From the IMG/VR virus record IMGVR_UViG_3300023703_000810: a stretch of DNA of 59,919 nt. One strand, 5' to 3'. Of this stretch, positions 4,566 through 58,507 are shown piece by piece. The translations under genes were made by a program, and so were the position numbers. The DNA is from an uncultured virus (IMG/VR IMGVR_UViG_3300023703_000810). Lineage: Duplodnaviria; Heunggongvirae; Uroviricota; Caudoviricetes. The notes beneath the pieces are model-generated. The model was not told where the DNA came from and made no database searches. It worked only from the letters and a program-made list of their open reading frames with translations. How positions within the stretch are numbered: position 1 is the stretch's first letter; every line of letters starts with the position of its first letter.

Positions 4566-5156
4566 ATGAAAAATGTTCTGTTCCTGCATATCCCAAAAAC
4601 AGCTGGGACATCCATTCGTACGGCACTTGTAGATTCTCCTGATCACAATTTTCCTATTGAGTGGATGGTATCTCATCTAACTCATGCACAGTTAGAGGCG
4701 AGATGTAGGTTCCATAACTTCACACCAGACTACTCATTCACGTTCGTGCGCAACCCATACGATAGAGCAGTCAGTACATATTTCCATTTACAGAAACATA
4801 TCAAGCCACCGCATTTTATGCGAAGAAAGTCTATTGAGTTTTATCAGAAATTTCTAAGTTTAGACTTCAAAGAGTGGTTAAAGTTCTTTCACTTTAACAC
4901 ATTCGAGTTAGCCAACTATCTTACGGTGTCACACCACTTTCTTCTTCAGAGCAGTTACTTGGATTCTAAATCTGATATTAGAATTTTCAAGATGGAAGAT
5001 ATGGAAACATTCCAACGTGAGACTGGTATTGTAGTTCCACAAGAACGTGTCAATCCAGATAGAAAACCAACTGAAGAAATGTATGATGATGAAAGCCGAG
5101 AGATGGTAAGAACTTATTTTAAACAAGATTTTGAAATGTTTGGATACGAACAATGA
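4566..5156 (+). CDS. Sulfotransferase family protein
   Basis: FLHIPKTAGTS PAPS-binding loop and VRNPYDRAVS motif. Confidence 0.85.
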   Translation: MKNVLFLHIPKTAGTSIRTALVDSPDHNFPIEWMVSHLTHAQLEARCRFHNFTPDYSFTFVRNPYDRAVSTYFHLQKHIKPPHFMRRKSIEFYQKFLSLDFKEWLKFFHFNTFELANYLTVSHHFLLQSSYLDSKSDIRIFKMEDMETFQRETGIVVPQERVNPDRKPTEEMYDDESREMVRTYFKQDFEMFGYEQ

Positions 5157-6481
5157 TACACATTTGTACTCTCAAGTATGGTACCAAGTACCCATCAAAG
5201 AATGTGAATCGTTTATACAATAGCATCAAACACATTCCAGATATTCGATTCATTTGTATGACTGAGGATGCTTCTGGATTAGACGAAAATATTGTAGTCA
5301 TACCTATTGGTGAGGATCCTCTTTTAAAAAGACAGTGGAACAAACTTCGTTTCTTCGATCCAAACTTTATTGGTGCTTCTTCTGATGATGAAGTTATCAT
5401 TATGGATATTGATCAAGTGTTCATCGGAGATCCAGAGAAACTTATCAAGTACCCAGTCAATACTGGCGAACAGTTATATGCATTCAGATGGTGGACGAAT
5501 CAGATCGGCACACCTATTAACTCTGGTGTATCAAAGTTCAAAGCAGATGGATCCAACCTCCATGTGCTACAGAAATTCTTAGAACGTCCAAGCTACTGGA
5601 TGATGCATTATCATCTAGGTTCTAAAAGTGGTTTGTATAAAGAGAAGTTCCCACCATTCTTTGGTGAGCAGAGATTCATCTGGCAAAACCTTCAGAAGAC
5701 TCATGACATAGTATTCTGGCCAAAAGAGTATATCGTTAAGTATGATTCTTCTTTAGGATTTATGGATAAGATGGCTGACTTATATCGAGACAGAGTCGGT
5801 GGTGAACTTATTGTTGGTGATAAGCTAAACCCAAGATCTGTTCTTGTTCACTTTGCTGGACCAAACAATGACTACGTTGATGATACCTTTATCTGTTTAC
5901 CGAAAGACTATAGCAAAGTAGTCATTGATTCTGAAACATACAAACAACAGATTGGTGGTAAGGCAGAACGATGGGATAAACGAGGACAGTTCCAACTTCA
6001 ACTTCTTATCGATAATGGATTAAAACCAGAACACAAACTGGTTGATGTTGGTTGTGGTCCATTAAGAGCAGGTGAACATCTGATCTCTTACTTGAACGAA
6101 TCGAACTACACAGGCGTTGATTTTAACGACAGCTTCATCAAAGTTGCAAAAGAGCTAACCGAAGGTTCTGAAAAGAATCCAACTCTATATGTCGTGAAAG
6201 ATTTTCAGTTCGAAGGTAAGTTCGACTACATCCTGCTCTTTTCCGTTCTGAACCACTGCACCTCAGAAGATCGCCTGAAGTTCTTTACGAATGTCCGAGC
6301 AAACCTAAAAGAAGGCTCTAAAATCGTCATCTCGCATGCTTGGTGGCTTACCGAAGACCTGTACCCTAAGATCGGTCTAAGACCCTCTAAAAGCCTCTCT
6401 AAAGGTTCCTACGACCTCCCAGAGTGGGGGTTCCAGCCCCTGAATGACGTGTTCCCTATACACGTCCTAGAAGCCTTCTAA
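5153..6481 (+). CDS. Glycosyltransferase (GT-A) fused to class I SAM methyltransferase
   Basis: N-terminal LKYGTKY...WNKLRFF...MDID...HFAG; C-terminal LVDVGCGPLRAG. Confidence 0.75.
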   Translation: MIHICTLKYGTKYPSKNVNRLYNSIKHIPDIRFICMTEDASGLDENIVVIPIGEDPLLKRQWNKLRFFDPNFIGASSDDEVIIMDIDQVFIGDPEKLIKYPVNTGEQLYAFRWWTNQIGTPINSGVSKFKADGSNLHVLQKFLERPSYWMMHYHLGSKSGLYKEKFPPFFGEQRFIWQNLQKTHDIVFWPKEYIVKYDSSLGFMDKMADLYRDRVGGELIVGDKLNPRSVLVHFAGPNNDYVDDTFICLPKDYSKVVIDSETYKQQIGGKAERWDKRGQFQLQLLIDNGLKPEHKLVDVGCGPLRAGEHLISYLNESNYTGVDFNDSFIKVAKELTEGSEKNPTLYVVKDFQFEGKFDYILLFSVLNHCTSEDRLKFFTNVRANLKEGSKIVISHAWWLTEDLYPKIGLRPSKSLSKGSYDLPEWGFQPLNDVFPIHVLEAF

Positions 6482-13679: not shown

Positions 13680-14219
13680 ATGAAGAACATTAGAATCATT
13701 AAGACTGGTTTAAATGTGTCAAAGATTTTGGCACAGTTAGAAAAATACCCAGAGGACTGGGGAGTTCAGAAAAGAGTAGATGGAGTTAAGTCCATGCTCT
13801 CATATGGATTCCCCGAAGTTCAAGCTGGTGTATTGCAGCTTGTGATGGGTGGTGTTGAACATATAGACCAGTACGTTGGAGACACAGAGTATTGTATTCC
13901 AACTCCAGCTATTCAACACCACACAGAAGTCATTGGCTTCGTTAAGCGACACTTTAAGAAAGTCAGTCGATGTGGTTTCCTATCTCTGCCAGTTGGTGGA
14001 GAAGTTGGAACGCACATTGATATTGGAAGTTACTACCAAACTAGAGACCGCTATCATCTGTCCATCCAAGGCAGATACATATACACAGTGGGAGATGAAT
14101 CTGTTACGGTAGAACCTGGAACCCTGCTATGGTTCAACAATAAACTACCCCATGGGACTAAGAACATAGGCGACTGTGTTCGTGTAACCTTTGTATTTGA
14201 CGTACCACATAAGAAATGA
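13680..14219 (+). CDS. Aspartyl/asparaginyl beta-hydroxylase-like 2OG-Fe(II) oxygenase
   Basis: HID...RYHL...WFNNKLPH...N...RVTFVFD. Confidence 0.8.
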   Translation: MKNIRIIKTGLNVSKILAQLEKYPEDWGVQKRVDGVKSMLSYGFPEVQAGVLQLVMGGVEHIDQYVGDTEYCIPTPAIQHHTEVIGFVKRHFKKVSRCGFLSLPVGGEVGTHIDIGSYYQTRDRYHLSIQGRYIYTVGDESVTVEPGTLLWFNNKLPHGTKNIGDCVRVTFVFDVPHKK

Positions 14220-14794
14220 ACGTTCTATTTTTACATATACCTAAGAATGCTGGCTCTGCTGTCCGCCATGCTATGATTGATAGTCCAGACATCAACTATC
14301 AGAAGTGGATGAACAATCACCATTTCTTATCTACTTTGGTTAATCGTTGCGAGTATCATAAGTATAAACCCGACTTCTCTTTTTGTATTGCAAGAAACCC
14401 ATACGACAGAGTCGAGTCTATCTTTTCTTACTCTAGGATTATGTACAAAGATTACTATGATACATATTCTTTACAACAGAAGAAAGCTGACTACCAAGAC
14501 TACGTGGCATATATGAATTTTGATTTCAAGCCATGGTTAAAGTACGTGCTGTTTAATCGAACTAAGAATTCTACAGACAGCATCAGCCGAACTCAGAGTA
14601 TGTTCATTGACTGCGATTATCCGATTGAGATATTCAAGTATGAAAACTTGGAGCCTCTGGAAAGTCGTCTTGGTGTTAAGTTACAAACAGTCAACTCCCA
14701 TCCGAAACAAAAGGTTGAATGGGATGATGAGACTAGAGATATGGTTCGTCTTTACTACAAGAAAGATTTTGAACAGTTTGGTTACGAATTATAA
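14216..14794 (+). CDS. Sulfotransferase family protein
   Basis: FLHIPKNAGS and ARNPYDRVES; paralog of 4566-5156. Confidence 0.85.
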   Translation: MNVLFLHIPKNAGSAVRHAMIDSPDINYQKWMNNHHFLSTLVNRCEYHKYKPDFSFCIARNPYDRVESIFSYSRIMYKDYYDTYSLQQKKADYQDYVAYMNFDFKPWLKYVLFNRTKNSTDSISRTQSMFIDCDYPIEIFKYENLEPLESRLGVKLQTVNSHPKQKVEWDDETRDMVRLYYKKDFEQFGYEL

Positions 14795-16555: not shown

Positions 16556-16880
16556 CCATCTAGCTAAACCACCATTCGTAGTCTTGGAGAGTCGCAGTGG
16601 CGAACAAGACCGAATCAAGTTGACAGAAGGTGAATACTCAGGTATAATCTTCTCTTACGGTGCGGTTAGCTTTGATGAAGACGGTGACACCTGCAAAATG
16701 CATTTCGATTATGAGGTGCATGAAGATGCAGGTGTCACTTATATCAAAGAAGAACTAGAGCACTATCTCGGTGACTTGCTCCAATTTATAATTATGGACC
16801 AGTTACAAAAGAATAGTATTTCCTACACAGGCGGGGTTGATGAGATTAGAACAACAGATTCTGAGCAGACTGATTTATGA
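16548..16880 (+). CDS. Hypothetical protein at the gp40 position
   Basis: Between uvsX and 41, as for T4 gene 40. Confidence 0.6.
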   Translation: MSDHLAKPPFVVLESRSGEQDRIKLTEGEYSGIIFSYGAVSFDEDGDTCKMHFDYEVHEDAGVTYIKEELEHYLGDLLQFIIMDQLQKNSISYTGGVDEIRTTDSEQTDL

Positions 16881-18234
16881 TGAGAACTACTGCCGAAAAG
16901 TAATTCCGTTTTTGAAGCGTGAGTATTTTATCGACAGAAAAGAGTCGATCATTATCAACGAGATTTCAGAATTCTTCACGAAGTATAACAAGCCAGTAAC
17001 AAAAGAGATTCTGGCAATCGAGGTAAGTAACCGAACTGACATCAACGAAAAAGAACTTGTTGAAGTCAGTTCGTTTATTGATACGCTTGTTGATGCACCA
17101 ATCAATGAAGACTGGTTGCTTACCAACACAGAGAAGTTTTGTAAAGACAAGGCGGTGTATAATGCAATCCTTACCTCCATCCGAATCCAAGAAGGTCGGG
17201 ACAAGACGTTCACTACTGATTCAATCCCATCTATTCTCTCTGATGCTCTTGCCGTTTCATTTGATAATCATGTTGGTCACGATTATCTTGATGACGCTGA
17301 CTCTCGCTATGAGTTTTATCATCGTGTTGAAGAGAAGGTTGCTTTCGACCTTGAGATGTTCAACAAGATTACCAAGGGTGGTCTGTCCAAGAAAACTCTC
17401 AATATCGTCCTAGCTGGTACTGGTGTTGGTAAGTCTCTGTTTATGTGTCACGTTGCTGCTGGTGCTCTAAGTGCTGGTAAAAATGTTTTATACATAACAA
17501 TGGAGATGGCTGAAGAACGTATCGCCGAACGTATTGACGCGAACCTTCTTAACCTGACCATGGACGAATTGAAAGTGATTGACAAGGATATCTACGAATC
17601 ACGACTGGCTAAGTTGGCCAAGAAGACTCAAGGTAAGTTGATCATCAAAGAATACCCGACTGCTGGTGCCCATGCTGGACACTTCAGAGCCTTGTTGGAA
17701 GAGTTAAAGTTGAAGCGTGAGTTTAAACCCGATATCATTATGATTGACTATTTGAACATCTGTGCTTCTCAACGAATGAAGCAAGGTGGCTCAGTTAACT
17801 CTTATACATATATTAAGGCAATTGCTGAAGAGTTACGTGGTCTTGCAGTTGAGTATAACGTACCGATCGTATCGGCTACTCAGACTACTCGTTCAGGTTA
17901 TACAAACAGCGATCCAGGGCTGGAAGATACCTCAGAATCTTTCGGTCTACCTGCCACTGCTGACTTTATGTTTGCGTTGGTAAGTAATGAAGAATTAGAG
18001 CAGTTGAATCAGATTATCGTTAAACAACTCAAGAATCGTTACAACGATCCAGGTTTTTACAAACGATTTGTTATCGGAGTTGATCGAGCTAAGATGAAAC
18101 TTTACGATGTGGAAGCATCCGCACAAGAAGGTTTGATGGACGCTGGTCATAAGAAGGATGATGTTCCGATGTTTGATAAGAGTGATTTTGGTCAACGTGC
18201 TAAGGCTGAGAGTTTTGACGGTTGGAAATTTTAA
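16840..18234 (+). CDS. 41: Replicative helicase (gp41)
   Basis: AGTGVGKS, ITMEMAEE, IDYLNIC, SATQTTR, KNRYND. Confidence 0.97.
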   Translation: MRLEQQILSRLIYDENYCRKVIPFLKREYFIDRKESIIINEISEFFTKYNKPVTKEILAIEVSNRTDINEKELVEVSSFIDTLVDAPINEDWLLTNTEKFCKDKAVYNAILTSIRIQEGRDKTFTTDSIPSILSDALAVSFDNHVGHDYLDDADSRYEFYHRVEEKVAFDLEMFNKITKGGLSKKTLNIVLAGTGVGKSLFMCHVAAGALSAGKNVLYITMEMAEERIAERIDANLLNLTMDELKVIDKDIYESRLAKLAKKTQGKLIIKEYPTAGAHAGHFRALLEELKLKREFKPDIIMIDYLNICASQRMKQGGSVNSYTYIKAIAEELRGLAVEYNVPIVSATQTTRSGYTNSDPGLEDTSESFGLPATADFMFALVSNEELEQLNQIIVKQLKNRYNDPGFYKRFVIGVDRAKMKLYDVEASAQEGLMDAGHKKDDVPMFDKSDFGQRAKAESFDGWKF

Positions 18235-18245
18235 GGAGAAGAGAA

Positions 18246-19616
18246 ATGGTTAAAGTAATTGTAGCAGAAAGAAAATATGACTGCGCTCATCTTGAGGGTC
18301 AATTCCTAGATGAATCACATTACGACATTTTGGTTGATGAAGACGCTGACGTTTATATGCCAGCTAACTGTGACATTGCAACTCAAGCTGAGTGTGGTAC
18401 TGGAAGAGACTGCTCATCTTGTGACAAGGGTACTGACGAACTGCGCATCGCATTTAAGTTCCGTAAGAACTACTTCAGTAAAGAACAACAAGACGCAGCT
18501 TATGCTGGTCTGCGTGAAGCTGCAGTAGAGACACAGAACCGTGGTATGGCTGCTGGTCCACGTGGCGAGAAGCTAGGTAATCGTGAGTGGGTTACTGAGT
18601 ACGAGTACGATGTCATCGACTATTTCTCTAATCCATCTGCCAACTTGTTTGGTGAAGATCCAATTGAAGAGATCCGTGCATCGCACAAAGGTAAGAAAGA
18701 ACAACCATCTACACGTAACAACGTTTGGGGTATCCAAGCAGTTAAGAAAGATGGCTTCGACTTCGAAACTTGGGTTGATGCAACTAAGAAACTCTCAAAT
18801 GATGAGATGAAAGCAGAAGCAGATCGAATCGTTAAGAAGTATGTGTGTTCCACTACTTACGCCAATGGTGTGTTCTCTGGTATCGCTGGTTGGTTCGATC
18901 GTTATCCACGAATCCCTTATGGTCGTGCAACATCTTACACTCAACGTGAACCAGAAAAGTTTGCGATGGCATTCCCATTCCTACAGACTCTTGCTAAAGG
19001 TTTCAAGGACTTGCTCCCATGGCGTTACAACAACCAGATGGAAGCTGCCAAGAAAATTGATCAAGGCTTCTTAGTTCCAGGGACTCCATTCACTACAATC
19101 ACTGTGAACAAGACATTCAGAACTGCTGCTCACTACGATGCTGGTGACTTGCAGACTGGTTTATCTAACCTGTTGGTTCTTTCCAACAATGGTAAATACT
19201 CTGGTGGATATTTGATCGCTCCTGAGTATCGTGTTGCTGTGAACGTGCGTCCAGGTGACTTACTCTTGATCAACAACCACGAAGTTATGCATGGAAATAC
19301 TCCGATTGTTCTTGAAGACGAATCTGCCGAGCGTATTTCTTTGGTATGCTATTTCCGTGAGAAGATGCTTGAGTTAGGTTCTAAGGCATACGAAGATTGT
19401 CGTTATGAATATGTTGAATCTCGTCGTCTTGATAAAGAACATCCAGGTCATAAGAATGAAGATGGCTCTGCTCGTCACTTGTGGAATGGTGTGAGTCAAG
19501 GTATGTGGGAAGACAAAGAGTGGTATGATTACCTAGAACGTAAACTTGGTACTGAAGAATTGCACAAGTATCATCCACAGTCTATCAAGTCCAACGACTT
19601 AGAAAGTTTCTTTTAA
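18246..19616 (+). CDS. TET/JBP-family 2OG-Fe(II) 5-methylpyrimidine dioxygenase
   Basis: FTTITVNKTFRTAAHYDAGD (HxD), HEVMHGNTP, RISLVCYFRE. Confidence 0.85.
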   Translation: MVKVIVAERKYDCAHLEGQFLDESHYDILVDEDADVYMPANCDIATQAECGTGRDCSSCDKGTDELRIAFKFRKNYFSKEQQDAAYAGLREAAVETQNRGMAAGPRGEKLGNREWVTEYEYDVIDYFSNPSANLFGEDPIEEIRASHKGKKEQPSTRNNVWGIQAVKKDGFDFETWVDATKKLSNDEMKAEADRIVKKYVCSTTYANGVFSGIAGWFDRYPRIPYGRATSYTQREPEKFAMAFPFLQTLAKGFKDLLPWRYNNQMEAAKKIDQGFLVPGTPFTTITVNKTFRTAAHYDAGDLQTGLSNLLVLSNNGKYSGGYLIAPEYRVAVNVRPGDLLLINNHEVMHGNTPIVLEDESAERISLVCYFREKMLELGSKAYEDCRYEYVESRRLDKEHPGHKNEDGSARHLWNGVSQGMWEDKEWYDYLERKLGTEELHKYHPQSIKSNDLESFF

Positions 19617-20302
19617 TGTGTGCTGTTATCGGTGCTGTGATTCAAAAACCCACAGCAACCCACTTTGATATGATTAGAAATGTATTCCACGAATCTCGTA
19701 TTCGTGGACTGCATGCGACTGGATTATCCTACCTCAAAGGTGGGGTAATCCATACTTTTAAAGAACCAGTCCCAGCGGATGAATTCAGAAAACTAGATGA
19801 TTTAGAGGAGATGGTTGATGACGATGGTACTCTTTACCTTATTGGTCACTGCAGATATAGTACTAGCGATTTATTGTATAACCAACCGATAGCAAATGAA
19901 TCAACATCAATTGTCCATAATGGTGTTATTACTCAGCACGATCCTGCTGATTGGGAAGTCTTGCACGGATACGCATGCGATGGTAAGAACGACACCGAAC
20001 TATTACTCCGTTCACTCGCTGACTACAGCCCACTAGAGCACTGGAAAGATGCAAGCCTTGCTGTTTGTGAATTACACACAGACAGAACACTGCGCACATA
20101 CCGCAATGGTAAGCGACCATTATATTTGACAGTTTTGGATGACGGATGTATAATTACTTCTACGGCTAACGTTGCTAAACGCGCCAACCTAAACTATACA
20201 ACTGTTCCATTGTCTATGAACATCTACCATACTATCGACGCTGACTTGTCTCATACTCTCGAGAAAGTAGACATCGAAGGTGCAGTAGATTACCAATTAT
20301 GA
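19616..20302 (+). CDS. Class II (Ntn) glutamine amidotransferase-like protein
   Basis: N-terminal M-C, RGLHATG, GHCRYST, HNGVI, DTE, RPL. Confidence 0.85.
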   Translation: MCAVIGAVIQKPTATHFDMIRNVFHESRIRGLHATGLSYLKGGVIHTFKEPVPADEFRKLDDLEEMVDDDGTLYLIGHCRYSTSDLLYNQPIANESTSIVHNGVITQHDPADWEVLHGYACDGKNDTELLLRSLADYSPLEHWKDASLAVCELHTDRTLRTYRNGKRPLYLTVLDDGCIITSTANVAKRANLNYTTVPLSMNIYHTIDADLSHTLEKVDIEGAVDYQL

Positions 20303-20940
20303 TTCTTGTAAACTCAACCAAAGTACAACAGCTTATCGGATCGAGTCCAGCTGGTAAGAACACCAAGTTCTTATCGGCTGCACACTCATTGTGGACTCGT
20401 TTCCATAACTACGATAAGTCTCTGCCAATGGCTTACGAAGTCAACGGTGAAGTTGTCTCTCTAATCTTTGCTACATTTAATCGGGATGGATATGCCAACC
20501 TCTACGAAATCGTCACGCTCGAAGGGCAAGAAGGTAAAGGCTATGCGTCCAAGTGCTGGGACGCGTGGATCAAGTACGCAGTCGAAGAACGAAAAGTCCA
20601 ACGACTTAAAATCTCTTGTACTCCCTCAAGTGTCGGCTGGCACAATCGGAATGGTTTGGTGTTTTGGGCAGTTGACCCGACTGGTTCACTCCGCTCAGAC
20701 CAGCCACTATTCGCTACACGTGCCGAACAAATTGCCTACAGAGACAACGCAATCGTAAACCCACTTCAAGCATTACCACCAGCTAAGGCTCGTGCTCAAT
20801 TCCTTGCTGAAGGTTTAGAGTCATACACTTGGGGCGAAAAGAAGAAAGCTAAGACACAAGCTGCTATTGATACAGTCGGTAAGGCTTGGTTAAGAGAAGC
20901 ACTGATGGATCAACCATCACTTGAGGACTTTTTGAAATAA
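20299..20940 (+). CDS. GNAT-like acyltransferase
   Basis: NLYEIVTLEGQEGKGYAS resembles GNAT motif A. Confidence 0.65.
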   Translation: MILVNSTKVQQLIGSSPAGKNTKFLSAAHSLWTRFHNYDKSLPMAYEVNGEVVSLIFATFNRDGYANLYEIVTLEGQEGKGYASKCWDAWIKYAVEERKVQRLKISCTPSSVGWHNRNGLVFWAVDPTGSLRSDQPLFATRAEQIAYRDNAIVNPLQALPPAKARAQFLAEGLESYTWGEKKKAKTQAAIDTVGKAWLREALMDQPSLEDFLK

Positions 20941-21959
20941 TGGATTATCGCTTAAAAGAAAACCGACGTGAAGCGTTCATCCGTTGGTATGCTTGGTCAT
21001 TACAGTATAATGATTGTGACCCAGCTGTATGGGCTACAAACTATCTCAATGATCGCTATGAGCATAACGATGAAGAACGCATCTGGCTTGCATGGCTATA
21101 TGGAAACACGTATCAACTCCCAACTGCATGGGTGTTGAAGAATGAATTCCCTGACTACGAACTCGCTGACCTTGGACGTATCACTGACTGGAATTCTAAG
21201 AACTACAAACGTCTCCGTTATCAGACAGACACTAAGTGGAACAAGGGACATCTACCTGTGATGTTCGAATCATATCAGAAATTTATTGGAAATGGATCAC
21301 AACGTGAAAAACTCGAATCGTTCTATGTGGGTAGCTCTAAGCAAAACTTTGATGTACTTTGGGGAGTACTTAAGACAAACCTTCACAAGTTTGGGCGTTA
21401 TTCTACTTGGTTCTATATGCAGCATCTTAAACACACTGCTGCTATTGACATTGAGCCTACTTCTCTCATGCTTGACGATTATGATGGTTCCCGTTCTCAT
21501 CGTAATGGATTACTTCTTGCCATTGGGAAAGACGACGACTATGATCGAAAACTTACTCAACAAGAATATCGAGACCTTGAATCTATTAGCAGTGGAATTA
21601 TCGCTGAGATGAAAGATAGGTTTCCACATCTTGCGAGTCAAATTGACTACTTTACGATGGAAACCTGCCTCTGTTCATTCAAGAAGATCTTTCGCCAGAA
21701 ACACGGACGTTATCTTAGCTACTATCTTGACCGACAAGCTGAAGAGATTCAAGTTGCAGAGAAAGACGGATGGACTGGTATTGAATGGAATGTACTCTGG
21801 GATGCTCGCAATGAAACAATAGATTTGCGCTTGGATCGTAAACAGGGTATAATTAAGGAAAGGTTTGGCGACTTCTTAGCTACAGGTAGACTAGATGGGC
21901 TAGACTGGATGTTTAATGATGAAGAACGTGTTGCAATTGGATTGGAGAATTTTTTATGA
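20940..21959 (+). CDS. aGPT-PPlase / amino-acid:DNA transferase (HhH-glycosylase-like fold)
   Basis: DCDP...WLAWLYG...FGRYSTWFY...ETCLCSFKK motifs; context with TET/JBP and a kinase. Confidence 0.75.
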   Translation: MDYRLKENRREAFIRWYAWSLQYNDCDPAVWATNYLNDRYEHNDEERIWLAWLYGNTYQLPTAWVLKNEFPDYELADLGRITDWNSKNYKRLRYQTDTKWNKGHLPVMFESYQKFIGNGSQREKLESFYVGSSKQNFDVLWGVLKTNLHKFGRYSTWFYMQHLKHTAAIDIEPTSLMLDDYDGSRSHRNGLLLAIGKDDDYDRKLTQQEYRDLESISSGIIAEMKDRFPHLASQIDYFTMETCLCSFKKIFRQKHGRYLSYYLDRQAEEIQVAEKDGWTGIEWNVLWDARNETIDLRLDRKQGIIKERFGDFLATGRLDGLDWMFNDEERVAIGLENFL

Positions 21960-22420
21960 CAGATGCTATTGGTGATGTTATTGTTGATAACGGTGATTTG
22001 AAAATTATGACTAACAATGGATTACAAACCATTATGTCTAACGCAGTTCTTACTGCTCCATCTTCTATTGGCGTTAGCTCGTGGAGTGCCAATAATGTTG
22101 TTACTGCTGGACAAGGTGGGTTCACCATCAAGGTAGACCCAAATGAAATGCTCGAGAAATATGAGTTCAACCAATTCGTTGTTGAGCATAAAGTTCAAGA
22201 GCAAGAACTCTTAAAGTTGAAAGAAACCAACGTCAACTATGCTGAAGAAATCAAAGAAGCAATGGCAAAGAATTGTGCACGTGAGTTCATTAAAAAACTA
22301 TCGTTCTCTAAGAAGCATGACCCTGATACTTCTACTCACTCTTTCCGTGGTCGCGTTTGGGTGTTCACCCGAGAAGAATTGGTAAACCTAATCGAAGACG
22401 TCAAAAAAGGTAACGTATGA
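21956..22420 (+). CDS. Hypothetical protein in modification operon
   Basis: ATGA-coupled on both sides. Confidence 0.7.
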   Translation: MTDAIGDVIVDNGDLKIMTNNGLQTIMSNAVLTAPSSIGVSSWSANNVVTAGQGGFTIKVDPNEMLEKYEFNQFVVEHKVQEQELLKLKETNVNYAEEIKEAMAKNCAREFIKKLSFSKKHDPDTSTHSFRGRVWVFTREELVNLIEDVKKGNV

Positions 22421-23022
22421 TGATTGATAAATTTGGTGTTCAAGACGAGATCAAAGTCGAGTTGATCAAGAACACTCTGAAGACTCGAAAGATTATTGCC
22501 GTTGGTGGTGTTCCAGGGACTGGTAAGACTACACTGTTTCGTAAATACATGGAAGATAAAAACTGGATCGAAACTGCTCCCGCCAAGTTAGTAGTTGCCA
22601 GCTATAATACTGACCGAGACTTGTATGTTCTTGGTAAGTACGATGAGGGTGAAACCTTTGCTGGTACAGATCGTCTTTCGATGGCAGTTCAACCTCCACT
22701 GCAAGAATGGATCGCGTCCCATAACTGTAATATCCTTTTTGAAGGTGACCGAGTATTTAATCAGTCATTCCTAGAGTTTTGTATGGGTCTACCGAACACC
22801 GAACTTCAGGTGGTCTATTTGAAGGCTCCACAGGCTATGTTGGAACAGCGCTACAAGGATCGAGGCTCCGATCAGTCCGAGCAATTCCTAAGAGGTAGAG
22901 AAACTAAATATAGTAACATACTGTCTAATTTCGACTTGATGTCCTATATTACTGAGTTTAATAATACCAACTTAGAGGAGCAATCGAAAGTCCTTGCACA
23001 TTTGGAGAAGCAATTTAGTTAA
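22417..23022 (+). CDS. P-loop nucleotide/DNA kinase of base-modification clusters
   Basis: GGVPGTGKT, FAGTDRLSMAVQP, FEGDR, RGSDQ. Confidence 0.8.
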   Translation: MMIDKFGVQDEIKVELIKNTLKTRKIIAVGGVPGTGKTTLFRKYMEDKNWIETAPAKLVVASYNTDRDLYVLGKYDEGETFAGTDRLSMAVQPPLQEWIASHNCNILFEGDRVFNQSFLEFCMGLPNTELQVVYLKAPQAMLEQRYKDRGSDQSEQFLRGRETKYSNILSNFDLMSYITEFNNTNLEEQSKVLAHLEKQFS

Positions 23023-23042: not shown

Positions 23043-23738
23043 ATGCAATTCCTAGAAAATGCAAACTACGACTGGCTGGAGTTGTTAAACTTCAGCACAC
23101 GCCCATTTAGAGCGAAATTCATTCCATCTAAAATTTGGAGAGACCTAGACAGGTATCGTAATGATTCTGTCGGTCTCTCCAACTACGTTAAGAAGTGGCG
23201 CACTAAAATTGAGTGGCAACCTCAGAAATCAAAAGCCAAGGTCTATGACACTTACCTTGCACTAGGTGGAGAATACTCTCCCGAAGATCGCCAGTGCATC
23301 ATACAAATACTAACCCAAGATTTCAAGAACTTCAAGTTCTCAGAAGAGTCATGGGATAAATTAAAATTCCGTTTTATTCAAACTCTTATGCATGAGATGA
23401 TTCACTTCATGCAATACGATCGTCGAGATGATCAGTGGAGTAACTACGTAGTTCCATACAAACGAGTTGGTCACAAAAAGAAAGACGAAGAGAGAAGATA
23501 CCTTTCAGAGTTTGATGAGATCCAAGCGTATGCCCACTGCATATATCTTGACTTCAAAATGTATCGCCCGAATGTCCCAATAGAAGTATTACTAAGTCGT
23601 TGTAAGAAAAAGATAGACTCAAGAACTCTACACTATGTTCTTAAGACATTTGACTACGATTTTAACAACAACCATTCTCCGCAGATGATCATCCAGCAGA
23701 TAGGTAAGTGGGACAGGAAGTATAATCGCTTGACCTAA
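23043..23738 (+). CDS. Hypothetical protein with HExxH metallopeptidase motif
   Basis: LMHEMIHFMQ...EIQAYA. Confidence 0.6.
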   Translation: MQFLENANYDWLELLNFSTRPFRAKFIPSKIWRDLDRYRNDSVGLSNYVKKWRTKIEWQPQKSKAKVYDTYLALGGEYSPEDRQCIIQILTQDFKNFKFSEESWDKLKFRFIQTLMHEMIHFMQYDRRDDQWSNYVVPYKRVGHKKKDEERRYLSEFDEIQAYAHCIYLDFKMYRPNVPIEVLLSRCKKKIDSRTLHYVLKTFDYDFNNNHSPQMIIQQIGKWDRKYNRLT

Positions 23739-33862: not shown

Positions 33863-34894
33863 ATGCTATACATTGATGCAAAGTATGCTCAAATCTTGGG
33901 TGGTCGCCTAAGAAATTTCAAACAAAAGAAAGATTACCTCTGGAACTTCAGTTGTCCAGTTTGTGGGGATAGTACACGCAATAAAAATAAAGCACGTGGT
34001 TACATCTATCGTGCTCGTGCTGACCTTCTTGCAAAGTGTCACAAGTGCGGTTACTCGTCCAACATCGGTAACTTAATCAAGTATGTTGACGCAACTCTCT
34101 ACGATGAGTATGTTCTTGAACGCTACAAAGCTGGAGCGACTCGATACCATGACCACAAAGACGTCTCAGACACTCGAGTTGTTTTAGAAACTCCAACAGT
34201 TGACTTGCTTGAAGACGATGTCCTAGAATCTCTGACACGGATGGATAAGTTACCAATGACACATCCAGCACTGAAGACATTGATTGATAGGAAGATCCCC
34301 AGAGAGTTCTGGAATCTTCTCTACTTTGCTCCAAAGTTTAAGGCATTCGTTAATTCGGTAACACCGAAGTTTCAAGAGCCGATTGTAGATGAACACCCAC
34401 GACTGATCATCCCGTTCTTTACTAATGCTGGTAAGTGTTTTGCTTTTCAAGGCAGAGCGTTCGGAGATGAACAACCTAAGTATTACACAATTAAAGTAGA
34501 CGAGACTGAGGAGAAAATTTATGGACTCGACAGAATTGATTTCAGCAAACGAATCTATGTTGTGGAGGGTCCACTCGACTCTCTCTTCATCCCCAATTGC
34601 ATTGCTGTGTCAGGAAGCTCTTTTGACACCCCTACTGTGCGGAGCCTTCTTACTAATGCAACGCTAGTAATGGACAATGAGCCTCGTTCTAAAGATATCT
34701 GCAAATTACTTGCTAAGAACATTAAGGCTGGATACAGTGTTTGTATGTTTCCCGAAAACATCGAACAAAAAGATATCAATGATATGATAATTAAGGGTGG
34801 TTTGACACCCGAGGAGATTCTCGAAACGATAAATACAAATACCTTTTCGGGAATTGAAGCGACACTTAGATTTAGTACATGGAAGAAAATATGA
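33863..34894 (+). CDS. 61: DNA primase (gp61)
   Basis: CPVCGDS Zn ribbon, VVEGPLDSLF TOPRIM, DNEPR, KDINDM. Confidence 0.95.
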   Translation: MLYIDAKYAQILGGRLRNFKQKKDYLWNFSCPVCGDSTRNKNKARGYIYRARADLLAKCHKCGYSSNIGNLIKYVDATLYDEYVLERYKAGATRYHDHKDVSDTRVVLETPTVDLLEDDVLESLTRMDKLPMTHPALKTLIDRKIPREFWNLLYFAPKFKAFVNSVTPKFQEPIVDEHPRLIIPFFTNAGKCFAFQGRAFGDEQPKYYTIKVDETEEKIYGLDRIDFSKRIYVVEGPLDSLFIPNCIAVSGSSFDTPTVRSLLTNATLVMDNEPRSKDICKLLAKNIKAGYSVCMFPENIEQKDINDMIIKGGLTPEEILETINTNTFSGIEATLRFSTWKKI

Positions 34895-35559
34895 AAGTCA
34901 GAATGATTAGTTATAGCAAACCCTCTCGTGAGATGTACGATGAAGGTTTGATGGACGTACAAGAGTTAATTGCGTTTTGTGCCCGAGTGTCCAATCCAAG
35001 CAATCAATTCAACACAGAGACATCAGAGAAGTTAATTAAGTATCTCATCAAACACCAACACTGGTCACCACTTGAAATGGTGTCAGCTTGTTTGGAAGTT
35101 GAGACTACTCGAGATATCGCTCGCCAGATTCTCCGCCACCGTTCTTTCTCATTCCAAGAATTCAGCCAACGTTACGCAGATCCAACTAAAGATTTGGACT
35201 TTGTGCTCCGTGAGGCACGACTACAAGACGAAAAGAATCGTCAAAATAGCGTTGGTACTGATGATGCGGAATTGAAAGCATGGTGGGACGCTAAGCAAAA
35301 GTTTATCATCGACATTGTCAAGACAACATACGGTGAAGCTATTGCTAAAGGAATCGCAAAAGAACAAGCGCGTGCTATCTTACCAGAAGGTAACACTGTG
35401 TCTCGTTTGTATATGAATGGTACTATCCGTTCATGGATCCACTTTATCCAAGTCCGTGGTGGCAACGGTACTCAAAAAGAACACATGGAAGTCGCAAGAG
35501 AATGCGCAAGGGTCATCGCAGAGGTATTCCCTCTAGCAGATGAGTTCGTAACAAAATAA
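34891..35559 (+). CDS. thyX: Flavin-dependent thymidylate synthase
   Basis: HWSPLE, RHRSFSFQEFSQRY. Confidence 0.97.
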   Translation: MKVRMISYSKPSREMYDEGLMDVQELIAFCARVSNPSNQFNTETSEKLIKYLIKHQHWSPLEMVSACLEVETTRDIARQILRHRSFSFQEFSQRYADPTKDLDFVLREARLQDEKNRQNSVGTDDAELKAWWDAKQKFIIDIVKTTYGEAIAKGIAKEQARAILPEGNTVSRLYMNGTIRSWIHFIQVRGGNGTQKEHMEVARECARVIAEVFPLADEFVTK

Positions 35560-38553: not shown

Positions 38554-38705
38554 TGGCAGTCACAAAACATTTCGAATGCAACAGCTGTGAGGCAACAGGT
38601 AAGATCGTCGTAAAGGGTGACGATCACAATCTATCTGATATCGTCTACTGTCCAGTTTGTTCAGCAGACATCTATGAAGAAGAAGAGTTCGACGAGGAAC
38701 AATAA
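38553..38705 (+). CDS. Small Zn-ribbon protein
   Basis: CNSC...YCPVC. Confidence 0.7.
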   Translation: MAVTKHFECNSCEATGKIVVKGDDHNLSDIVYCPVCSADIYEEEEFDEEQ

Positions 38706-39667
38706 TGAAAATTTTGGTAACTGGTGGGTTGGGTTTGATTGGTCACAATGTAGTTCAACGACTGCAATCATTGGGACATGAAGTTGTTATCGTTGATACG
38801 AGAACTACATACGGTATCATCCCACAAGCTGAGATTGATCATTTGATGGAAGAACGTATGAAGAAGATCGCTCCTTATACAGTAATCTATCCATACGATA
38901 TCTCAAATTCTGATGATATGGATTTTGTTATGGCAACTCACAAGCCAGATGTTGTTATGCATCTGGCGAGTTTCCCTCGACAAAAGGTAGTAAACTCAAA
39001 CCCACAACTGGGCGCAAAGACTATGTGCGAGGGTTTGCTTAATCTTCTTGAGACTTCTGTTGCTAATGGTATTGATAAATTCCTCTACATTAGCTCAAGT
39101 ATGATTTACGGTGAGTTCAAAGACAATGTAAAGGAAGACGCCATCTGTAAGCCAGAAGGACAGTATGGTATTATGAAGTACATGGGTGAGAAGTTAGTGC
39201 AAGACTACGAACGTAAAGGTTTGTTGAAGTCTATCACTATTCGTCCATCTGCTGTGTATGGACCACTGGACGTTGAAGACCGTGTTATCTCTAAGTTCTT
39301 ACTCACTGCAATGCGCGGTGGAGTTCTTAAGGTTAATGGTGTTCACGAGGTTCTAGACTTTACTTACGTTGACGATGCAGCTGATGGTATCGTTGCTGCT
39401 GCTCTCTGTGAAGAAGCATACGGTGGCACTTACAATATCACTAAGAGTCATAGTGTTTCTCTACATCAAGCTGCTCAGATGGCTGTTAAATTGGCTGGTA
39501 AGGGTAGCATCGAAGTTCGAGATAAGGATGCAGACTTTCCTTCACGTGGTGCTTTAGATATCACGAAGGCTAGAACTACATTCGGGTTCGATCCAAAGGT
39601 TGATGTCGAAGAAGGATTCGTTCGCTACTATGAGTGGTTGAGGGATTCTAGATACTATAACAAGTAA
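38705..39667 (+). CDS. NAD-dependent nucleotide-sugar epimerase/dehydratase
   Basis: TGGLGLIG, SSS, YGIMK, DFTYVDD. Confidence 0.92.
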   Translation: MKILVTGGLGLIGHNVVQRLQSLGHEVVIVDTRTTYGIIPQAEIDHLMEERMKKIAPYTVIYPYDISNSDDMDFVMATHKPDVVMHLASFPRQKVVNSNPQLGAKTMCEGLLNLLETSVANGIDKFLYISSSMIYGEFKDNVKEDAICKPEGQYGIMKYMGEKLVQDYERKGLLKSITIRPSAVYGPLDVEDRVISKFLLTAMRGGVLKVNGVHEVLDFTYVDDAADGIVAAALCEEAYGGTYNITKSHSVSLHQAAQMAVKLAGKGSIEVRDKDADFPSRGALDITKARTTFGFDPKVDVEEGFVRYYEWLRDSRYYNK

Positions 39668-48563: not shown

Positions 48564-48768
48564 AGATGAAGACAGAGAGTTTCTTCTCTTTCTTTTAAGT
48601 CTTCACGAAGACGAATTCAAAATGATGCTGGACAGTATGAACCAAGATGATGCTATGCGAGTCTTGGTTATGATACAGTTGGCCAAGGATGAATTGTTCG
48701 ACGATGAGATGGAAGAAGATGGAATGAAAGAAGCCAATGAAGTGCTTGACAGGATTATGAGATTATGA
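48538..48768 (+). CDS. Acidic hypothetical protein
   Basis: ORF coupled to the next gene; start uncertain. Confidence 0.55.
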   Translation: MKRKVRHLEDEDREFLLFLLSLHEDEFKMMLDSMNQDDAMRVLVMIQLAKDELFDDEMEEDGMKEANEVLDRIMRL

Positions 48769-49196
48769 AACAAAAGTGGATAGAAGCATTTATGGACACA
48801 GCGGAGCGATTCGCCAAGTTGTCCAGTGCCAAGCGATTGCAGGTTGGTGCGGTAGTCGTAAAAGATGAACGCATCACTTCAATCGGCTACAATGGTACAC
48901 CAGCAGGTTGGGATAACAACTGTGAGTTCGAGTACGTGAACCCTCAGACAAAGGTTGCAGAGATTGTGACCAAGAAAGAAGTTATCCATGCAGAAGCCAA
49001 CGCCATCTCTAAGTTGGCAAAGTCTGCAGACTCTGGAGAAGGTGCTTCTATCTTTGTTACTCATGCTCCTTGTGTTGAGTGTGCCAAGCTAATCTATGGT
49101 GCTGGCATCAAGCATGTCTACTACCGCAACTCCTACCGCAATGAAGATGGGTTAAACTTTCTAGTGAAGTGTAACATCGAGACAGAAAAGTGTTGA
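48765..49196 (+). CDS. cd: dCMP deaminase
   Basis: VGAVVV, GYNG, HAEANA, PCVEC. Confidence 0.93.
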   Translation: MKQKWIEAFMDTAERFAKLSSAKRLQVGAVVVKDERITSIGYNGTPAGWDNNCEFEYVNPQTKVAEIVTKKEVIHAEANAISKLAKSADSGEGASIFVTHAPCVECAKLIYGAGIKHVYYRNSYRNEDGLNFLVKCNIETEKC

Positions 49197-56867: not shown

Positions 56868-57035
56868 ATGAGTGACGGTGGTAAAGGCGACAAACGTCGT
56901 CCAGAAGATAAAGATCAATGGGACAACGGATACGATCGTATCTGGGGTAACAAAAAGAAAGTCGATGAGTCTGAAGACAAACCGACTAGAAATAATGAAG
57001 AGACCCAAGAAGTCTTGAAACTGAAAGATAACTAA
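56868..57035 (+). CDS. 55-aa conserved phage peptide (MSDGGKGDKRRP...YDRIWG)
   Basis: AGGAG RBS; TAATG-coupled to the next gene. Confidence 0.7.
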   Translation: MSDGGKGDKRRPEDKDQWDNGYDRIWGNKKKVDESEDKPTRNNEETQEVLKLKDN

Positions 57036-58507
57036 TGATTACTGTTGGTATCGGTAAGGCATATCATGACTGCAGTATTTGTGTTAATGTTGATGGTGTA
57101 GTTAAATATGCTAAATGGGAAAGACAAGTACAAGATAAACATGCTAAAGCCCCTGACTGGTGGTTTTGGCAAAAGCTATCTGATTGGAATATACCGTTCG
57201 ACCAGATTGATTTAATTGTAGAAACCGATGGCGGTGGTGTATCAAACTTTCATAAGATAACAAGACTACCATATGGTGGTAATACATCAATTCGAAAGAA
57301 TAAAAAACATTTTATACTTGATCATCATTTAGCTCATGTGTGGTCTATATCATCGTATAATAATGATAATGCTGTAGTCATTGATGGTAAAGGTTCTGGT
57401 GACCATACTGTTATGGTAAAGAATAATGATAACATAACAAGACTAAAGTGTAGTAATCCAGCGCATATTTTTGATAATATTGGTAAGATACTAAATCTTG
57501 GTTCTAAGCATACAGACTATGCTGGTAAAGTAATGGGGTTAATCCCATATGGAAAGCCAGTAAAAGAAGTTTTTGATTTACTAAAAAAAATTAGTTCGAA
57601 TAATTTATCTGATTGCTTAAAATGCGTAAATATAGGTACGAATTCTCCTCCAGACGAGAAATCTTGTTTTGATGATGATTGGATTAAACGTCTAAACGCA
57701 ATTTCAACTGTTAACGAAATTTGTTATGATTTTGTTAAGTTACAGTTTAGCTCTCTGGACAAATCTAAACCTGTTTATTATTCTGGCGGTGTCGCTTTGA
57801 ATGTTGACTGGAATCGAAGACTACTAGATGATGGTTACAACTTAATAGTTGAACCTGCTTCTTATGATGGTGGATTGTCTATTGGTTGTATGAGATATGC
57901 ATGCTACATGCTTAAAGTTGATCAGCCAGTGATTAAAGATTTTCCTTATATCCAAGATGATGAGGCTCCAGATTCCACTCCATCTATTTCAACGATTAAA
58001 AAAGTAGCTGAGATGCTCGCTAACGGTAAGATTGTAGGATGGTATCAGGGACATGGTGAACTTGGACCACGTGCTCTAGGTAATAGATCTATTCTAATGA
58101 ATCCAACGATCAAAGATGGTAAGGATATTTTGAATAGTAAAGTCAAACGTAGAGAATGGTTTAGACCTTTCGGTGCCAGCGTTAAGAAAGATAAAGCAAG
58201 TAAGTATTTTGATTTGGATGAAAATCCATACATGCTATTTACTGCGAATGTTATTGATAAGAACTTACCTGCAATAACTCACGTTGATGGCACTTGTCGT
58301 CACCAGACAGTTACTGTAGAATCAAACAGATTGTTCTATTCTCTGTTAGATGAGTTTGAATCATTAACAGGATTGCCAGTATTGTTGAATACCTCGTTGA
58401 ATCTAGGTGGTAAACCTATAGCTGGCAGAATACAAGATGCAATTGAATTGTTCAATACTACAGAGATGGATGCTCTTTGTGTTGGTGATACGTTGTATAT
58501 AAAATAA
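57035..58507 (+). CDS. NodU/CmcH-family O-carbamoyltransferase
   Basis: HDCS, DHHLAH, GKVMGL, GGVALN, ELGPRALGNRS, REWFRPF, LNTSLN. Confidence 0.93.
   Translation: MITVGIGKAYHDCSICVNVDGVVKYAKWERQVQDKHAKAPDWWFWQKLSDWNIPFDQIDLIVETDGGGVSNFHKITRLPYGGNTSIRKNKKHFILDHHLAHVWSISSYNNDNAVVIDGKGSGDHTVMVKNNDNITRLKCSNPAHIFDNIGKILNLGSKHTDYAGKVMGLIPYGKPVKEVFDLLKKISSNNLSDCLKCVNIGTNSPPDEKSCFDDDWIKRLNAISTVNEICYDFVKLQFSSLDKSKPVYYSGGVALNVDWNRRLLDDGYNLIVEPASYDGGLSIGCMRYACYMLKVDQPVIKDFPYIQDDEAPDSTPSISTIKKVAEMLANGKIVGWYQGHGELGPRALGNRSILMNPTIKDGKDILNSKVKRREWFRPFGASVKKDKASKYFDLDENPYMLFTANVIDKNLPAITHVDGTCRHQTVTVESNRLFYSLLDEFESLTGLPVLLNTSLNLGGKPIAGRIQDAIELFNTTEMDALCVGDTLYIK

Follow-up and report, generated by a model that had tools for sequence, protein, structure and literature searches.

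A phage operon predicted to aminate and acylate thymine in replicated DNA using glutamine-derived ammonia

The window analyzed here is a stretch of 59,919 nucleotides from an uncultured virus of the Caudoviricetes (IMG/VR record IMGVR_UViG_3300023703_000810). It contains a cassette that encodes a Tet/JBP dioxygenase (TET), a class II (N-terminal nucleophile [Ntn]) glutamine amidotransferase domain (GAT), a GNAT acyltransferase, an amino-acid:DNA transferase (AADT), a 154-residue protein, and a P-loop kinase. The cassette is a real, conserved operon that belongs to a published but chemically unexplained type of phage thymidine hypermodification. We consider it moderately probable that thymine (T) is converted by way of 5-hydroxymethyluracil (5-hmU), 5-phosphomethyluracil (5-PmU), and 5-aminomethyluracil, the last made with glutamine ammonia, to an N-acetylated base, which would be a fresh route to 5-acetamidomethyl-deoxyuridine (5-AcNmdU). 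The chances look evenly balanced for a broader proposal, in which GAT and AADT form a class II glutamine amidotransferase acting on a base in polymeric DNA, wholly after replication together with the Tet/JBP enzyme and the kinase, in which hundreds of freshwater T4-like phages cap the amine by interchangeable modules (acetyl, amino-acyl, and phospho-acyl), and in which an HExxH protein may clear crosslinks. What is new here is a set of GAT-AADT fusions, two natural gene replacements in virus G001 and phage Simon, the swapping of enzymes in the slot behind GAT, and an AADT pocket that lacks the glycine and diamine determinants; the gene combination itself has been published.

In the proposed pathway, the phage would replicate with ordinary T, as its ThyX gene suggests, and the dioxygenase would then hydroxylate part of the T in finished DNA to 5-hmU, which the kinase would phosphorylate to 5-PmU. 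From 5-PmU the AADT would form an exocyclic-methylene intermediate held as a Cys-C6 adduct, and the nucleophile would be ammonia that the class II glutaminase frees from glutamine, giving 5-aminomethyl-deoxyuridine (5-NmdU). GAT and AADT would together make up a two-subunit glutamine:DNA amidotransferase, a proposal that draws on the fusions and gene replacements. The GNAT would N-acylate the amine, most likely to 5-AcNmdU, the product of phage PaMx11, and sister phages would cap the same amine through an amidoligase module. The likely purpose would be to shield the DNA from host restriction nucleases. There are 0 CCGG sites in the 166.5-kb genome, and the three 4-base palindromes with the strongest depletion contain no T (CCGG, 0.00; GGCC, 0.26; CGCG, 0.51); GCGC is not depleted (1.06), and the T-containing CATG is (0.58). 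This pattern fits only weakly with a shield limited to T-containing sites.

Glutaminase, transferase, and the variable slot

The stop codon of gp41 (position 18234) lies 11 nucleotides before the six plus-strand open reading frames (ORFs) of the cassette, which spans positions 18246 to 23022, and each of the five junctions inside it is a stop/start overlap of the form TAATG or ATGA; this confirms an earlier note on this sequence that had described six coupled genes directly after gp41. In IMG/VR, the dioxygenase has 356 relatives and the AADT has 332, and 80 of each were retained. Chance does not explain the gene order: in 79 of 80 related loci gp41 is no more than two ORFs upstream of TET, and in 76 of 80 GAT is no more than two ORFs downstream of it. 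Among 98 non-redundant AADT loci, 18 stop short of TET, and the remaining 80 all have GAT placed between TET and AADT (80/80).

Aligned with GlmS, the GAT has the N-terminal Cys, a glutamine site of the Arg73/Thr76/Asp123 type, and the Asn-Gly oxyanion hole, residues that we presume to serve in GlmS as these names imply. Its C2, R30, R80-Y81-S82-T83, N102-G103, and D126 are unchanged in 40 of 40 homologues. Within the motif HCRYST, an aromatic residue occupies the position of GlmS Trp74, which we take to be the gate of the ammonia channel, in 91 of 91 sequences. In Pfam, the domain matches GATase_6/7 and not GATase_4.

Searches for longer proteins recovered eight (P0007 to P0014, mutually 27 to 76% identical) in which a GAT and an AADT are fused in one chain. 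The AADT halves of these fusions are the nearest relatives of the AADT in the window (32 to 41% identity), followed by ViI gp247 (26%) and the glycine and putrescine enzymes (12 to 19%). An AlphaFold model of P0009 (pLDDT, 89.7; pTM, 0.82), whose AADT portion is 41% identical to this one, has an N-terminal domain matching PurF (Z, 24.3), GlmS (Z, 23.2), and EgtC (Z, 20.2) and a C-terminal domain matching PaMx11 gp46 (PUGT, PDB 8Z2M; Z, 18.3; rmsd, 3.5; 254 aligned residues). The modeled layout is the glutaminase-plus-synthase arrangement of class II amidotransferases. Sequence searches of the PDB with the AADT itself returned no match, and the fold match comes only through the fusion model. 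No locus was found for P0009, and a further candidate, P0003, was rejected as a GAT fusion: its N terminus is unrelated and its GNAT is partial. Apart from G001, the fusion loci have a GNAT nearby in L178 and L180 (L181 is a near-duplicate of L180) and none in L179. In L177 (5983-11883) and L179 (5944-11730) the fusion is paired with a dUMP hydroxymethylase, which acts before replication; the GAT-AADT module therefore appears to be independent of TET.

The papers cited below are Lee 2022 (PMC8989533), Wen 2024 (PMC11472151), O'Toole 2026 (PMC13229309), Burke 2021, and the 2026 dapT paper. The AADT exceeds the cut-off for ADDT (PF18724; 74.7 bits versus 26.2), and its D27, E241, T242, and C245, which correspond to PUGT D24, E243, T244, and C247, are unchanged in 57 of 57 sequences. 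Glycine is selected by K248 and Y257 and diamines by G227 and D238 (2026 dapT paper), and pocket residues have also been defined by Wen 2024. Where glycine-binding enzymes have W146, K150, and K248, this AADT has Y154, F158, and S246. At the positions of K248 and Y257, Ser and Tyr are found in 56 to 57 of 57 sequences, Ala and Tyr in the five fusions checked, Trp at the first position in ViI, and Gly and Asp in the diamine:DNA transferases of PhiW-14 and SH-Ab 15599; this AADT has Tyr at the D238 position. Glycine or a diamine is therefore an unlikely donor, since the residues that select them are replaced, and, to judge from the aligned positions, the GAT-fused enzymes have a similar pocket. 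The AADT tree joins ViI with B4 through long branches, and no conclusion is drawn from that grouping. Taken as a single step, the conversion of 5-PmU to 5-aminomethyluracil by the AADT with glutamine ammonia seems to us likely.

The gene slot after GAT is variable. In 80 loci it holds this GNAT (49 loci), an amidoligase with a second, related GNAT (22 loci), or an amidoligase with a low-molecular-weight (LMW) phosphatase (9 loci), and Amidoligase_2 occurs in 31 of the 80. There are 0 slot-diagnostic columns in the AADT among 85 sequences, and slot type switches 14 times on the AADT tree versus a shuffled mean of 31.6. Because GAT is constant while the slot varies and the AADT has no slot-specific columns, the core seems to make one intermediate, which is decorated by different amide-forming enzymes. 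The GNAT of the window has a GxxGKGYA acyl-CoA motif, its model matches polyamine and N-terminal acetyltransferases, and acetyl is the most likely acyl group; no match to it was found among cultured phages. Some relatives (L007, L008, L012, L045, L115, and L147) carry B12-binding radical SAM genes between AADT and kinase. These and the small 2-oxoglutarate (2OG) oxygenase and endonuclease-like insertions of some relatives are sporadic and hence were not counted as pathway members.

Two genomes contain what look like natural replacements. Virus G001 (105 kb, 100% complete) has a GAT-AADT fusion, a kinase, HMUDK_hel, a dUMP hydroxymethylase-like gene, and a homologue (35% identity, E 9e-27) of gp48, the PaMx11 5-aminomethyl-dU acetyltransferase, which acts only on 5-NmdU (Lee 2022). 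A search that matched the positive control genome found no PaMx11 gp47 FAD lyase in G001, and the fusion therefore appears to occupy the place that gp46 and gp47 have in PaMx11. In phage Simon (L165, PQ683277, 2930-10531), an unannotated, M6-like cluster encodes a glycine-type AADT (40% identity to gp46) and an FAD lyase (42% to gp47), followed by an amidoligase with 41% identity to the T4-like type and an LMW phosphatase with 34%. The cluster also holds a kinase, HMUDK_hel, and a dUMP hydroxymethylase; a search with positive controls found no GAT. As the glycine-type AADT and FAD lyase stand ahead of it, the slot module appears to take the place of gp48, downstream of the pair that makes 5-NmdU. 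On gene content, both cases point to 5-aminomethyluracil as the common intermediate, and Simon is predicted to make an acylated 5-aminomethyluracil not yet described. The fusions, the G001 locus, and the slot swapping lend support to the chemistry proposed in the earlier note (T oxidation, phosphorylation, substitution by glutamine ammonia, and N-acylation). The N-acyl-aminomethyl-uracil that it envisaged would likely be 5-AcNmdU, which is not a new compound, since PaMx11 makes it by another route.

Oxidation, phosphorylation, and genomic context

The source genome record is 166.5 kb long and 96% complete, with about 4% possibly missing. Pfam scans covered 193 submitted window and genome ORFs of at least 90 residues and found T4-like replication and structural genes across the record. 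The family calls of the earlier note were right, all five cassette matches (Tet_JBP, GATase_6, Acetyltransf_1, ADDT, and Ploopntkinase3) lying above the Pfam gathering cut-offs, as was its account of a genome with ThyX and dCMP deaminase and a window without dUMP hydroxymethylase or cytosine methyltransferase (Table 1). Among these ORFs there was no thymidylate-synthase-family enzyme (dUMP hydroxymethylase included), C5-DNA methyltransferase, ParB, FAD oxidoreductase or FAD lyase, pyridoxal phosphate (PLP) enzyme or PLP decarboxylase, or amidoligase, and our own hidden Markov models (HMMs), run on the genome, matched neither amidoligase nor LMW phosphatase. Family-level searches for ParB, C5 methyltransferase, and ThyA in the genome gave no hits either, a weak result, as the same type of search missed the genome's own GAT. 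Because ThyX is present and ordinary dTMP is made, any 5-hmU must arise after replication.

Table 1. Features of the cassette and related genes in the window
Feature	Position	Strand	Evidence or comment
gp41-type replicative helicase	16837..18234	+	DnaB_C E 2e-21; constant upstream neighbour, outside pathway
Tet/JBP Fe(II)/2OG dioxygenase, 456 aa; predicted to oxidise T in DNA to 5-hmU	18246..19616	+	Tet_JBP E 1.9e-26
Class II (Ntn) glutamine amidotransferase domain (GAT), 228 aa; predicted ammonia donor of AADT	19616..20302	+	GATase_6 E 2.4e-9
GNAT acyltransferase, 213 aa; predicted N-acylation (probably acetylation) of 5-aminomethyl	20299..20940	+	Acetyltransf_1 E 5.6e-6
AADT (aGPT-Pplase clade 2), 339 aa; predicted phosphate displacement from 5-PmU via Cys-C6 adduct	20940..21959	+	ADDT E 1.2e-20
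ORF without family, 154 aa; dispensable	21956..22420	+	present in 59/79 spans
P-loop kinase, 201 aa; predicted 5-hmU DNA kinase	22417..23022	+	Ploopntkinase3 E 1.1e-7
HExxH zincin-like protein; candidate seventh cassette member	23043..23738	+	after kinase in 62/66 informative spans
ThyX thymidylate synthase	34879..35559	+	Thy1 E 3.1e-42
dCMP deaminase	48765-49196		Pfam scan

The dioxygenase scores 92.7 bits against PF12851 (cut-off, 34.9), its best PDB match is TET2, and its iron triad (H296, D298, and H349) and 2OG-binding R363 are each present in 79 of 79 homologues. Phage dioxygenases of clades C1 and C2 oxidise T in DNA, those of clade C1 linked to GATase, kinase, and AADT do so in vivo, and a ParB-dependent subclass is consistently associated with GATases, kinases, and AADTs (O'Toole 2026). 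There is a strong probability that this enzyme oxidises T to 5-hmU in DNA. An HMM built from the ParB-domain gene of relatives matched only two GIY-YIG-like ORFs in this genome. In several loci with amidoligase and GNAT (L020, 9127-10422, and similar), a ParB_N-domain gene with a GIY-YIG-like N terminus precedes the AADT and may be a mobile endonuclease or an activator. In the cultured phages DLP6 and Cr30 (L082 and L083), a Tet/JBP gene with 48% identity is labeled "SNF2 DNA repair protein," which is likely a misannotation. In two TET loci of close relatives (L048, 2685-4031; L022, 3532-4200), a glycosyltransferase-like gene follows TET and replaces the cassette, which suggests a base-J-like glycosylated 5-hmU.

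The kinase scores 32 bits against PF18751 (cut-off, 27) and has the Walker A and EG motifs common to PaMx11 gp49, M6 gp54, and ViI gp243, with which it is 20 to 28% identical; by analogy with these homologues, it very likely turns 5-hmU into 5-PmU. The 154-residue ORF, which is found in just 59 of 79 non-redundant AADT-to-kinase spans, had no Pfam family and returned nothing from the ESM Atlas. The motif of the HExxH protein downstream is kept in 63 of 63 proteins; its match to SprT-like proteins is weak (E 0.043, under the cut-off), and only unnamed viral clusters were found in the ESM Atlas. The gene is absent from L048, and a search of three more distant phages with TET alone did not find it. 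One could speculate that this protein is a protease devoted to the removal of stalled AADT-DNA crosslinks.

Alternative explanations

Several observations weigh against glutamine-dependent amination of thymine by this operon. The AADT is not the sole fusion partner of GAT, which is also fused to GNAT (P0002 and P0004) and to amidoligase (P0005 and P0006), and fusions are rare, with 147 of the 150 top GAT relatives being of stand-alone length and 3 being long. EgtC, a gamma-glutamyl hydrolase, is a strong structural match to the GAT domain. The AADT has higher identity to the serine O-transferase ViI gp247 (26 to 27%, E 1e-22) than to the N-transferases (12 to 19%), and the GNAT has no BLAST similarity to PaMx11 gp48 (E 5.4). 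G001 and Simon are one genome each, and repeat searches for Simon-type amidoligases and G001-type acetyltransferases found no more. Some ParB-less clade C1 dioxygenases are inactive in E. coli (O'Toole 2026), and Pfam found no ParB that could be a neighbouring activator here.

In one alternative, the AADT would add glutamine or a gamma-glutamyl compound, such as glutathione or, in genomes with the amidoligase, gamma-Glu-Cys made by that enzyme. The Ntn enzyme would next cleave glutamate from the adduct on the DNA, a reaction like that of EgtC in ergothioneine synthesis, leaving an amine for the GNAT to acetylate. Such a sequence, which we consider unlikely, would account equally for the fusions of GAT to AADT, GNAT, and amidoligase and would suit the EgtC match and the frequency of Amidoligase_2; however, the GATase_6/7 assignment, the higher structural ranking of PurF and GlmS, and the invariant aromatic residue at the presumed channel gate argue against it. 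In its favor, thiols (for example, beta-mercaptoethanol) can react with AADT intermediates (Lee 2022); against it, Simon runs its amidoligase module without GAT, a poor fit to a pair of protecting and deprotecting enzymes. It is slightly less likely still that the operon follows ViI, with the AADT transferring serine or another hydroxy or amino acid, the GNAT acetylating its alpha-amine, and GAT passing ammonia to the slot enzyme for amidation of the carboxylate. The proximity of the AADT to ViI gp247 and mycobacteriophage B4 gp3, rather than to the glycine and putrescine enzymes, speaks for this route, as do the position of GAT, which always adjoins the slot, and its fusions to each of the slot enzymes; neither gp247 nor gp3 has a detectable GAT, a weak negative from the search type that missed GAT in this genome. 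Against it, GAT is intact in a genome in which neither Pfam nor our own HMMs found an ATP-dependent carboxylate activator, the pocket Trp of ViI at the K248 position is Ser here and Ala in the fusions, the closest relatives of the AADT are fused to GAT, and G001 joins a fusion with a homologue of the amine-specific gp48.

The first step could also be different or weak, so that few or other modifications are made: the dioxygenase may need an activator, act on host-made 5-methylcytosine (5mC), or modify little DNA. This we hold to be improbable. Besides the lack of a detected ParB and the inactivity of some ParB-less enzymes, it is favored by the oxidation of 5mC as well as T by the T-dioxygenases tested so far (O'Toole 2026; Burke 2021) and by the cultured relatives DLP6, Cr30, and C48C1, whose dioxygenase genes (42 to 49% identity) lie away from any annotated AADT. 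However, the scans found no C5 methyltransferase in the genome, the described AADT chemistry requires uracil O4 (Wen 2024), and the catalytic residues of the dioxygenase are invariant in an operon kept across dozens of genomes.

Relation to known systems

The earlier note presented the pathway type as possibly new, but clusters of TET, kinase, AADT, and GATase are already in the literature. Lee 2022 describes metavirome clusters of TET_JBP, 5-HMUDK, and AADT (Fig. 2 sequences 22-25) and lists TET, kinase, AADT, and GATase together without chemistry, and O'Toole 2026 describes clusters of clade C1 5mYOX T-dioxygenases with GATase, without chemistry for the GATase. These clusters share with ours the gene families and the proposal that TET is the source of 5-hmU; unlike in those of O'Toole 2026, no ParB was found here. 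In the accessible text, neither paper reports GAT-AADT fusions or a GATase reaction. Our literature search found no paper that assigns a reaction to the GATase, although Iyer et al. 2013 may already treat such neighborhoods.

PaMx11 makes 5-AcNmdU by glycine transfer, an FAD lyase, and then GNAT gp48 (Lee 2022). Its genes for AADT (gp46), FAD lyase (gp47), GNAT (gp48), and kinase (gp49) resemble the cassette in combining kinase, AADT, and GNAT, in the catalytic Cys/Glu/Thr/Asp of the AADT, and probably in the end product (Lee 2022; Wen 2024). In PaMx11, however, 5-hmU comes from a dUMP hydroxymethylase and the amine from glycine and the FAD lyase, whereas here they are predicted to come from a post-replicative Tet/JBP enzyme and a glutaminase. 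The AADTs are only 12 to 15% identical in alignments, this one being without W146, K150, and K248, and no similarity between the GNAT and gp48 is detectable. Thus, the operon is predicted to work like the PaMx11 pathway while having no dUMP hydroxymethylase, gp47, or gp48 orthologue that would place it in that type. The 5-NeOmdU pathway of Salmonella phage ViI contains the closest characterized AADT, the serine:DNA transferase gp247; unlike ViI, this genome has GAT and GNAT and other pocket residues (Ser versus Trp after the catalytic Cys), and no PLP family was found. PurF, GlmS, and AsnB likewise have an Ntn glutaminase with an N-terminal Cys, which in some phages is fused to an acceptor-activating domain, but here the acceptor domain would be a base-flipping AADT that is usually encoded by a separate gene.

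GATase and amidoligase have been named yet left unexplained in thymine-hypermodification clusters (Lee 2022), and glutamine-dependent amination would give them a specific, testable role, for which the single-chain GAT-AADT fusions are easy test enzymes. If it is correct, five genes place an amine handle on the T of any DNA with nucleotide pools unchanged, which would be useful for labeling and sequencing chemistry, and the probable means by which an abundant uncultured phage group (356 IMG/VR matches) is shielded from restriction has been identified.

Elsewhere in the window lie genes for a carbamoyltransferase (57035-58507), sulfotransferases (4566-5156 and 14216-14794), an NAD epimerase (38705-39667), and a methyltransferase-domain protein (5153-6481), which probably serve surface or glycan modification and are not linked to the operon. 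Outside the window lie genes for an anti-CBASS Acb1 homologue (L170, 16952-17443, minus strand) and an NAD-salvage pair of NAMPT and a NUDIX-nucleotidyltransferase (L171, 5144-7532, minus strand).

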